From assembly GCF_003334255.1 (NCBI RefSeq), contig NZ_QOWU01000190.1: a DNA stretch of 773 bases; one strand, given 5' to 3'. The translations under genes were made by a program, and so were the position numbers. This document shows, one piece after another, positions 1 through 773 of this stretch. The stretch comes from Escherichia coli. Its GTDB lineage: Bacteria; Pseudomonadota; Gammaproteobacteria; Enterobacterales; Enterobacteriaceae. The stretch's first letter is position 1, and every line of letters starts with the position of its first letter. The notes beneath the pieces are model-generated. The model saw only the letters and a list, made by a program, of their open reading frames with translations. It had not been told where the DNA came from and searched no databases.

Positions 1-773
1 GCCAGCGGCAGGCCGCGATGGTCGCAGTGGTACAGGTGGATTTTTCGCGCCGGCGTGTACACCGGGTCCATCTGGTTTTGCATCTGCTCCACGGTCAGGC
101 CGCACGATGCCAGCCAGCGGCGGCTTTCCTCACTCACCCGGTCAGCCAGGATTTCACTTTCCAGCCGGTCGAGCATCTGCACCAGCACCGGCGGGAACAC
201 CACACTGCCACCGTCTTCGCCGCCGGACTGCTGAAGGGCATCCGCCAGGCTGCGGCGCTGCGTTTTCGCCAGCTCACCGGTGGCAGTTTCGACCCTGATG
301 AGTGGCGTGAAGCTCCCCGGCTGATAAATCGTCTGGATGCGGCTCCTGTCGTTCTGTATCGTGGTCAGCCGGTCGCCGTCCCAGCCGTACCAGGTCACTT
401 GCGGTTTCCGTGACAGCGACATCCAGCCCGTCAGGTCCCGTTCACGCCGCCACACCCGTTTTGCCACCCTGCGGCCCAGCGGGTCGTAAAGATAGCGACT
501 TTCGACCAGCGGCTCTTCATATTGTGTCCGCGTGTAGTGCACCAGCCGGTGCTGACTGTCGTAATGGTACCGGTGAGTCCGCTCATCATCCGTGCGGATA
601 ACCCCTTCCGGGATGAGGTCGGTTTTCTCTGTCAGCCTGCCGTGACGGTCATACCGGTAAAGATAGTGCGCGTCACGGGCGATACGGTTATCCGGCCACA
701 TGCTGAGGGTGCTGTCCGGGTGCAGCTCCGGGTCGGGCAGGCGGTTACCTGCCGGGTCTGTGGCATACGGGAT
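1..773 (-). CDS. rhs: Rhs-family polymorphic toxin protein, conserved core region (YD-repeat protein); internal fragment, partial at both ends
   Basis: Minus-strand frame with codons 773..771 down to 5..3 is open for all 257 codons with no stop. Translation contains YD-repeat motifs ([47 protein letters not shown]) and the stretch ...[113 protein letters not shown], which I recognise from memory as the E. coli-type Rhs core (rhsA/B/C/D family). Paralog cannot be assigned from this window; 'rhs' is a family prefix only. Hand-counted GC about 63% (488/773) fits the known GC-rich Rhs core. No start or stop codon delimits the gene within the window. Confidence 0.93.
357..395 (-). repeat. Degenerate YD-like repeat, motif [13 protein letters not shown]
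   Basis: Minus-strand translation [13 protein letters not shown]; aromatic-x-aromatic-D-G-D-R-L-T resembles a diverged YD repeat (W in place of the second Y). Confidence 0.45.
459..497 (-). repeat. YD repeat (protein-level Rhs repeat), motif [13 protein letters not shown]
   Basis: Minus-strand translation [13 protein letters not shown] fits the RYxYDxxGR consensus; plus-strand text ttttgccaccctgcggcccagcgggtcgtaaagatagcg. Confidence 0.7.
540..572 (-). repeat. YD repeat (protein-level Rhs repeat), motif [11 protein letters not shown]
   Basis: Minus-strand translation [11 protein letters not shown]; RYxYD followed by hydrophobic RLV, a slightly degenerate YD repeat lacking the Gly. Confidence 0.6.
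630..665 (-). repeat. YD repeat (protein-level Rhs repeat), motif [12 protein letters not shown]
   Basis: Minus-strand codons tat ctt tac cgg tat gac cgt cac ggc agg ctg aca match the xRYxYDxxGRLT YD-repeat consensus; plus-strand text tgtcagcctgccgtgacggtcataccggtaaagata at 630..665. Confidence 0.7.

Follow-up and report, generated by a model that had tools for sequence, protein, structure and literature searches.

The 773 nt of Escherichia coli DNA analysed here (hereafter the window) are part of the conserved core shared by the clade-I rhs genes (rhsA/B/C type) and form, at the DNA level, a multi-copy repeat, a reading in which we have very high confidence. The window is a whole contig and not a slice of one gene. 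Judging from the coincidences of its boundaries and from the contigs of the same size found elsewhere, we also consider it highly probable that it is a collapsed exact repeat, which short-read assemblers emitted as a node of its own. On this reading the contig represents several copies of rhs, among them a silent orphan and, for certain strains, a gene with a frameshift.

The window has a GC content of 63%. On the minus strand a reading frame runs from 773 down to 3 through 257 codons with no stop, and each of the five remaining frames contains 1-12 stops; when the window was shuffled 20,000 times by mononucleotides, only 91 of the shuffles had any fully open frame. We compared the translation with family models. 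Its residues 1-257 align to NCBIfam RHS_core (NF041261) over positions 913-1169 of the 1261 in the profile (E=7e-166, 554.1 bits). The whole-protein cut-off of this model, 2000 bits, is out of reach for a 257-aa fragment, and full-length RhsB, which contains the window identically, scores 2643.8 bits over residues 1-1247. Further, TIGR01643 YD_repeat_2x reaches 25.6 bits against a cut-off of 15.8, and a motif scan located three canonical YD repeats (YxYDxxGR[LR]) at residues 39-47, 69-77 and 94-102 of the translation, the last of which reads YLYDPLGRR. Pfam matches were weak, with E=0.016 for RHS PF03527, whose domain is cut by the window end, and E=0.05-0.7 for RHS_repeat. Since the best Pfam E-value was 0.016, Pfam alone is insufficient to assign the family, and the RHS_core match is decisive. 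The window is an internal segment of an Rhs/YD-repeat core, a non-Rhs identity being already excluded at E=7e-166. The original prediction, made from the letters alone, had placed an uninterrupted 257-codon minus-strand frame with YD repeats inside an Rhs core, and it was correct as to family, strand and position; the translation also ends in the residues that it had given, after which two bases (GC) belonging to an Ala codon close the contig. It had further proposed that a search with Rhs models would settle both family and paralog. The search did settle the family, but a single paralog did not emerge, the same 773 nt being found at several loci. The parts of the window are as follows.

1..773, minus strand: internal Rhs core coding segment, an open frame with a match to RHS_core and 100% identity to rhsB, equal to residues 899-1155(6) of 1411 in K-12 RhsB.
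282..773, minus strand: part of the YD-repeat beta-strand shell (residues 1-164), which aligns to solved Rhs cocoons (phmmer against the PDB).
465..665, minus strand: the three canonical YD repeats (residues 37-103), from the motif scan and TIGR01643, with weak Pfam RHS_repeat matches at residues 38-52 and 66-83.
42..281, minus strand: a segment of ~80 residues without YD periodicity (residues 165-244), ending ...YTPARK, to which no solved Rhs chain aligned (phmmer).
1..41, minus strand: start of the hyperconserved RHS protein domain (residues 245-257), truncated where the contig stops (positions 1-13 of the 38 in the Pfam PF03527 model, E=0.016).
773..773, no strand: contig end, equal to the 5' edge of the orphan core homology (alignment of rhsB with the K-12 orphan).
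1..1, no strand: contig end, equal to the last base before rhsA-type and rhsB-type sequences diverge at rhs gene nt 3468 (mismatch lists).

In the phmmer search against the PDB, residues 863-984 of Tse5 (8cp6_B) aligned to residues 24-165 of the window with E=6.7e-14, and the Salmonella bongori Rhs core chains 8qjd, 8qjb and 8qjc matched it with E about 2e-8. Solved Rhs cocoons of type VI secretion system (T6SS) toxins are those of P. aeruginosa Tse5 (8cp6), S. bongori Rhs (8qjb-d) and Photorhabdus Rhs1 (PMC8636562). The YD part aligns to Tse5 and S. bongori Rhs, at low identity, and a 12-residue stretch of the window aligns to the FFHTDHLGTPL region, directly before the C-terminal plug. The segment without YD periodicity follows the last YD strands and precedes the hyperconserved RHS domain, and none of the solved Rhs chains aligned to it in this search. 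From the last YD strands to the hyperconserved motif we counted 76 residues in the window (165 to 241) but only 31 in Tse5 (984 to 1015 of the chain). When RhsB is compared with RhsD, the same segment is the most divergent, with 67.5% amino acid identity versus 86% for the YD part. It may represent an insertion into the Rhs shell that is specific to the clade and has its own role. The TIGR03696 Rhs_assc_core model covers residues 1170-1247 of full-length RhsB, starting 14 residues outside the window.

On the model of published relatives, we infer shell encapsulation, autoproteolysis, T6SS delivery and the switching of tips by recombination for these proteins as well. The window itself encodes the closing YD-repeat strands of the shell, a beta-cocoon that would surround the C-terminal toxin, then the ~80 residues without YD repeats, and then the opening 13 residues of the hyperconserved domain, which runs into the aspartyl-protease plug. 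Everything that comes next, from the plug and the putative PxxxxDPxGL self-cleavage site to the polymorphic tip and the predicted immunity gene, lies past coordinate 1. In such a protein the shell would enclose the tip and aspartyl autoproteolysis after DPxGL would free it, the T6SS would deliver the toxin, and the downstream protein would protect the producer (PMC8636562, PMC3150448).

The plus strand contains an ATG-started ORF of 131 aa at 18-413, antisense to the rhs frame, and the real feature of the window might be taken to be a plus-strand gene at this place. We rejected this candidate and regard it as scarcely credible. The antisense frame across rhsB shows stop-free runs of 220, 175, 261 and 137 aa, as expected for a gene of 62% GC, and since such runs are typical throughout rhsB the ORF is most likely a by-product of composition. 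Moreover, the RefSeq records of the examined loci annotate no gene at this ORF, and a consensus scan of the window for promoters and terminators returned 0 sites of either kind. Internal promoters have been reported inside Salmonella rhs (PMC7043789); with no promoter-like site, the window gives no sign of one of that kind. At a permissive threshold, Rfam returned only a chance-level match to b55 (19.9 bits, E=0.94, with the gathering score set at 70), and no Chi site was present on either strand of the window.

The window is 100% identical to nt 2695-3467 of rhsB of K-12 MG1655 (codons 899-1155 of 1411; locus L001, 6001-6773). The earlier remark that nothing in it looked novel was therefore justified, and E. 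coli rhs cores, YD repeats, the DPxGL boundary, polymorphic tips, immunity genes and orphan cassettes have themselves been known for decades. By megablast the window is present in 3,886 of 5,426 complete E. coli genomes, with a median of 5 places in each; identity reaches 99% or more in 1,588 records. Within K-12, its identity is 99.1% to rhsA (7 mismatches), 97.7% to rhsC and 78% to rhsD, and the ybfO orphan fragment is 98.3% identical over the full window, with 13 differing positions; in three complete genomes, copies of the orphan are 100% identical to it. K-12 RhsB (WP_000015298.1), RhsA and RhsC share the RHS_core equivalog model, and the window does not differ from rhsB at any base. It nevertheless cannot be assigned to one paralog, because the same 773 nt occur in genes at the rhsA, rhsC and rpmE-metJ loci of other strains.

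Both ends of the contig fall, to the base, on points where rhs copies part. At coordinate 773 begins the core homology of the orphan rhs fragment (the K-12 ybfO pseudogene) downstream of rhsC-ybfB, and the AT-rich linker between ybfB and the orphan lies upstream of this position (...GTAACCTGGGCATTGAT). At the other end, the first mismatch between rhsA and rhsB past coordinate 1 is at rhs gene nt 3468, and the rhsA-locus copies of J53 and ATCC 8739 have 0 nt of further identity to rhsB. Sequences expected to continue beyond coordinate 1 are, for example:

rhsB/rhsC type: GCTCATCAGCACGG
rhsA type: CCTTATCAGCAAGG
orphan type: GCTTGTCAGCACGG

The same boundaries can be seen within a single genome. 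SWYHX138.261ft has two exact copies of the window, in rhsC and in the orphan, 1,871 nt apart, and outside its bounds the two agree for a further 0 nt on the upstream side and 3 nt on the downstream side. The contig is thus the maximal exact sequence common to at least two genomic copies, ending where they diverge, and as an exact multi-copy repeat of 773 nt it is expected to be emitted by short-read assemblers as a separate contig. Since the K-12 orphan differs at 13 positions, the source genome must have identical copies, as the three complete genomes do.

Independent assemblies contain contigs of the same kind. In an exact-product look-up, the only records of the 257-aa product were stand-alone contigs 771-773 nt long. 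These five contigs (L010-L014), which cover 11 samples, were drawn from two metagenomes in ENA and three draft genomes in NCBI. On the 773 side they all share their first base. None of the five was identical to the window over the full 773 nt; two were identical but 1-2 nt shorter, and the other three carry one synonymous base change (position 429 or 681, counted on the reverse complement). Their lengths differ by 0-2 nt at the coordinate-1 side, which fits strain-specific sets of copies that shift the branch points.

The exact match to K-12 rhsB could also be taken at face value, the window being then an arbitrary slice of one intact rhsB-type gene with one tip (Tox-JAB-2/DUF4329) and one immunity gene, yhhH. 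K-12 rhsB is indeed intact and is followed by both, and rhsB is the commonest annotation of the 100% matches, among the matches listed. However, the window is the whole record, both of its ends coincide to the base with divergence points of paralogs or the orphan, a contig with the same bounds recurs in independent assemblies, and five different tips follow the identical sequence. We therefore give the single-gene explanation only a small chance and retain the collapsed repeat. More generally, short stand-alone windows from drafts and metagenomes can be collapsed repeats, and extending the sequence then has no single answer.

What lies past coordinate 1 can be followed in detail at K-12 rhsB. 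The core-end motif, PISDIDPLGL, occupies residues 1238-1247, so that from coordinate 1 there are 82 codons to its P, 87 to the start of the closing pentapeptide and 92 to the final L. This spacing was the same in 5 of the 5 genomic contexts examined, that is, five of the six with an exact window, the J53 rhsB copy having been left out. According to Poole et al. 2011 (PMC3150448), PxxxxDPxGL marks off the variable Rhs-CT; the paper also describes orphan modules. RhsB also has a DPIGL 17 residues upstream of its DPLGL, a pair that corresponds to the double-motif arrangement of Photorhabdus Rhs1, a protein with a shell and plugs that is cleaved after the second DPLGL (PMC8636562). Exactly after the core-end motif the GC content of rhsB falls from about 62% to 32-40%. 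The tip that follows has 164 aa and matches Pfam DUF4329 (E=4.6e-40), and its family was named Tox-JAB-2 by Zhang et al. 2012 (PMC3482391). The co-directional gene yhhH (127 aa) overlaps the rhsB stop and matches Imm-NTF2-2 (E=3.4e-26), which is the predicted cognate immunity family of Tox-JAB-2 (PMC3482391). At the other end of the protein, within residues 1-450, DUF6531 matched with E=5.8e-18 and PAAR_motif weakly (E=0.21). At the K-12 locus no vgrG adjoins rhsB, and nikR lies upstream.

In other strains and at other loci the same 773 nt lead elsewhere. We took the structure of the copies from individual loci (L001-L009), and found at least five unrelated tips, of 164, 130, 147, 150 and 152 aa, after the identical sequence:

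K-12 rhsB: tip of 164 aa, then yhhH.
rhsA-locus genes of M217, ATCC 8739 and J53, with the exact window: tip of 130 aa, then yibA (HEAT repeat).
rhs gene of 2013C-3264 between rpmE and metJ (L004 1305-5491), with the exact window: tip of 147 aa, then dsORF-f3.
Full-length rhsC of SWYHX138.261ft, with the exact window: tip of 150 aa, then ybfB.
5'-truncated orphan downstream of rhsC in SWYHX138.261ft, with the exact window: tip of 152 aa, then ybfC.

The frame runs through the core-end motif into a tip and a downstream ORF in every complete-genome context examined, and yhhH, yibA, dsORF-f3, ybfB and ybfC are predicted to be immunity genes (PMC3482391). With different tips behind the same 773 nt, the tip that belongs to this contig is undefined and cannot be recovered by extending it. 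The original prediction had set the variable part beyond coordinate 1, with the core-end motif roughly a hundred codons away, then a low-GC extension and a short co-directional ORF. The direction was right, motif and low-GC tip following in this order in the five contexts, and the distance was a fair estimate of the 82-92 codons found. The drop in GC was seen at rhsB, and the co-directional ORF is yhhH there and a small ORF in each of the other contexts. The predicted variable tip and immunity gene are likewise where they had been placed, but a single tip is not what follows, since there are five.

Exact copies of the window also exist in genes that are no longer intact, which suggests another origin for it: a decayed, isolated remnant of a core, from a doubly truncated orphan or part of a frameshifted pseudogene, with no functional tip. 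Such copies were found in 5'-truncated orphan pseudogenes and in an annotated frameshifted rhs gene, that between rpmE and metJ of 2013C-3264, where the open frame reaches back only 383 codons upstream of the window. Orphan fragments are indeed interrupted by IS elements, for instance by IS1 in M217. Yet the frame of the window is fully open, every context examined reaches a motif, a tip and a downstream ORF, and the coordinate-1 end is a boundary set by paralog SNPs and not an IS junction. A decayed remnant is accordingly very improbable, even more so than a slice of one intact rhsB, and the collapsed multi-copy repeat remains our preferred explanation. Two observations can be added on 2013C-3264. 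After its rhs gene come an IS1 pseudogene and a yiiX that contains an internal stop, so that the locus seems to be in decay. The tip of 147 aa shows an H[ST]H...S..D pattern like that of the Tox-JAB-2 tip of RhsB.

The orphan deserves separate description. It lacks roughly the first 900 codons and a start signal, and only 15 non-Rhs codons are open upstream; the window is therefore, at that place, not part of an expressed full-length toxin. Its core-end motif is PVQYIDSMGL (in SWYHX138.261ft, L009, about 340 codons after 6121; in K-12, L007). The proline beside the catalytic aspartate is thus replaced, the orphan having DSMGL where the other four contexts have DPLGL. Among the closest known systems are the orphan rhs-CT/rhsI cassettes, such as K-12 ybfO+ybfC and that of Salmonella LT2 (PMC3967940; PMC3150448); the window-bearing orphan continues into a motif, a tip and a downstream ORF of its own.

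In Salmonella, recombination of the main rhs gene with its orphan makes the orphan toxin active (PMC3967940), and LT2 is the only strain for which this loading of an orphan tip has been shown experimentally (PMC3967940). The contig ends can be placed in a similar scheme. At 773 the truncated orphan cassette begins to share the core, at the other end the paralogous cores diverge ahead of their tips, and the shared tract in between is probably the homology through which rhs copies recombine and swap tips. It is conceivable, although we hold this only tentatively and think it somewhat doubtful, that the tract of the window and about 275 nt downstream of it are kept identical by gene conversion between full-length rhs genes and orphan cassettes, and serve as the substrate of toxin-tip switching in E. 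coli. The window itself carries little biological weight, being known sequence; the variable part is the tips of the source strain, whether loaded or orphan.

Mosaic SNP patterns between rhsA and rhsB are present in J53, MG1655 and M217 and show that the copies exchange sequence. In SWYHX138.261ft, a perfect direct repeat of 776 nt (L009 4250-5025 and 6121-6896) links the full-length rhsC to the orphan, and a single crossover between its two copies would delete 1,871 nt, comprising the rhsC tip and ybfB, and fuse the 152-aa orphan tip to rhsC. In J53, rhsA (L006 1307-5440) carries rhsB alleles at nt 1893-3231. J53 and MG1655 rhsA (L002 9058-13191) differ exactly where MG1655 rhsA differs from rhsB (L001 3307-7542), namely at nt 1893 and 3108-3231. 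From these alleles, the J53 tract looks like a gene conversion from rhsB to rhsA within the K-12 laboratory lineages. The rhsA-locus gene of M217 resembles rhsB as far as nt 3495 and rhsA from nt 3510 onward, with a crossover point that differs from that of J53.
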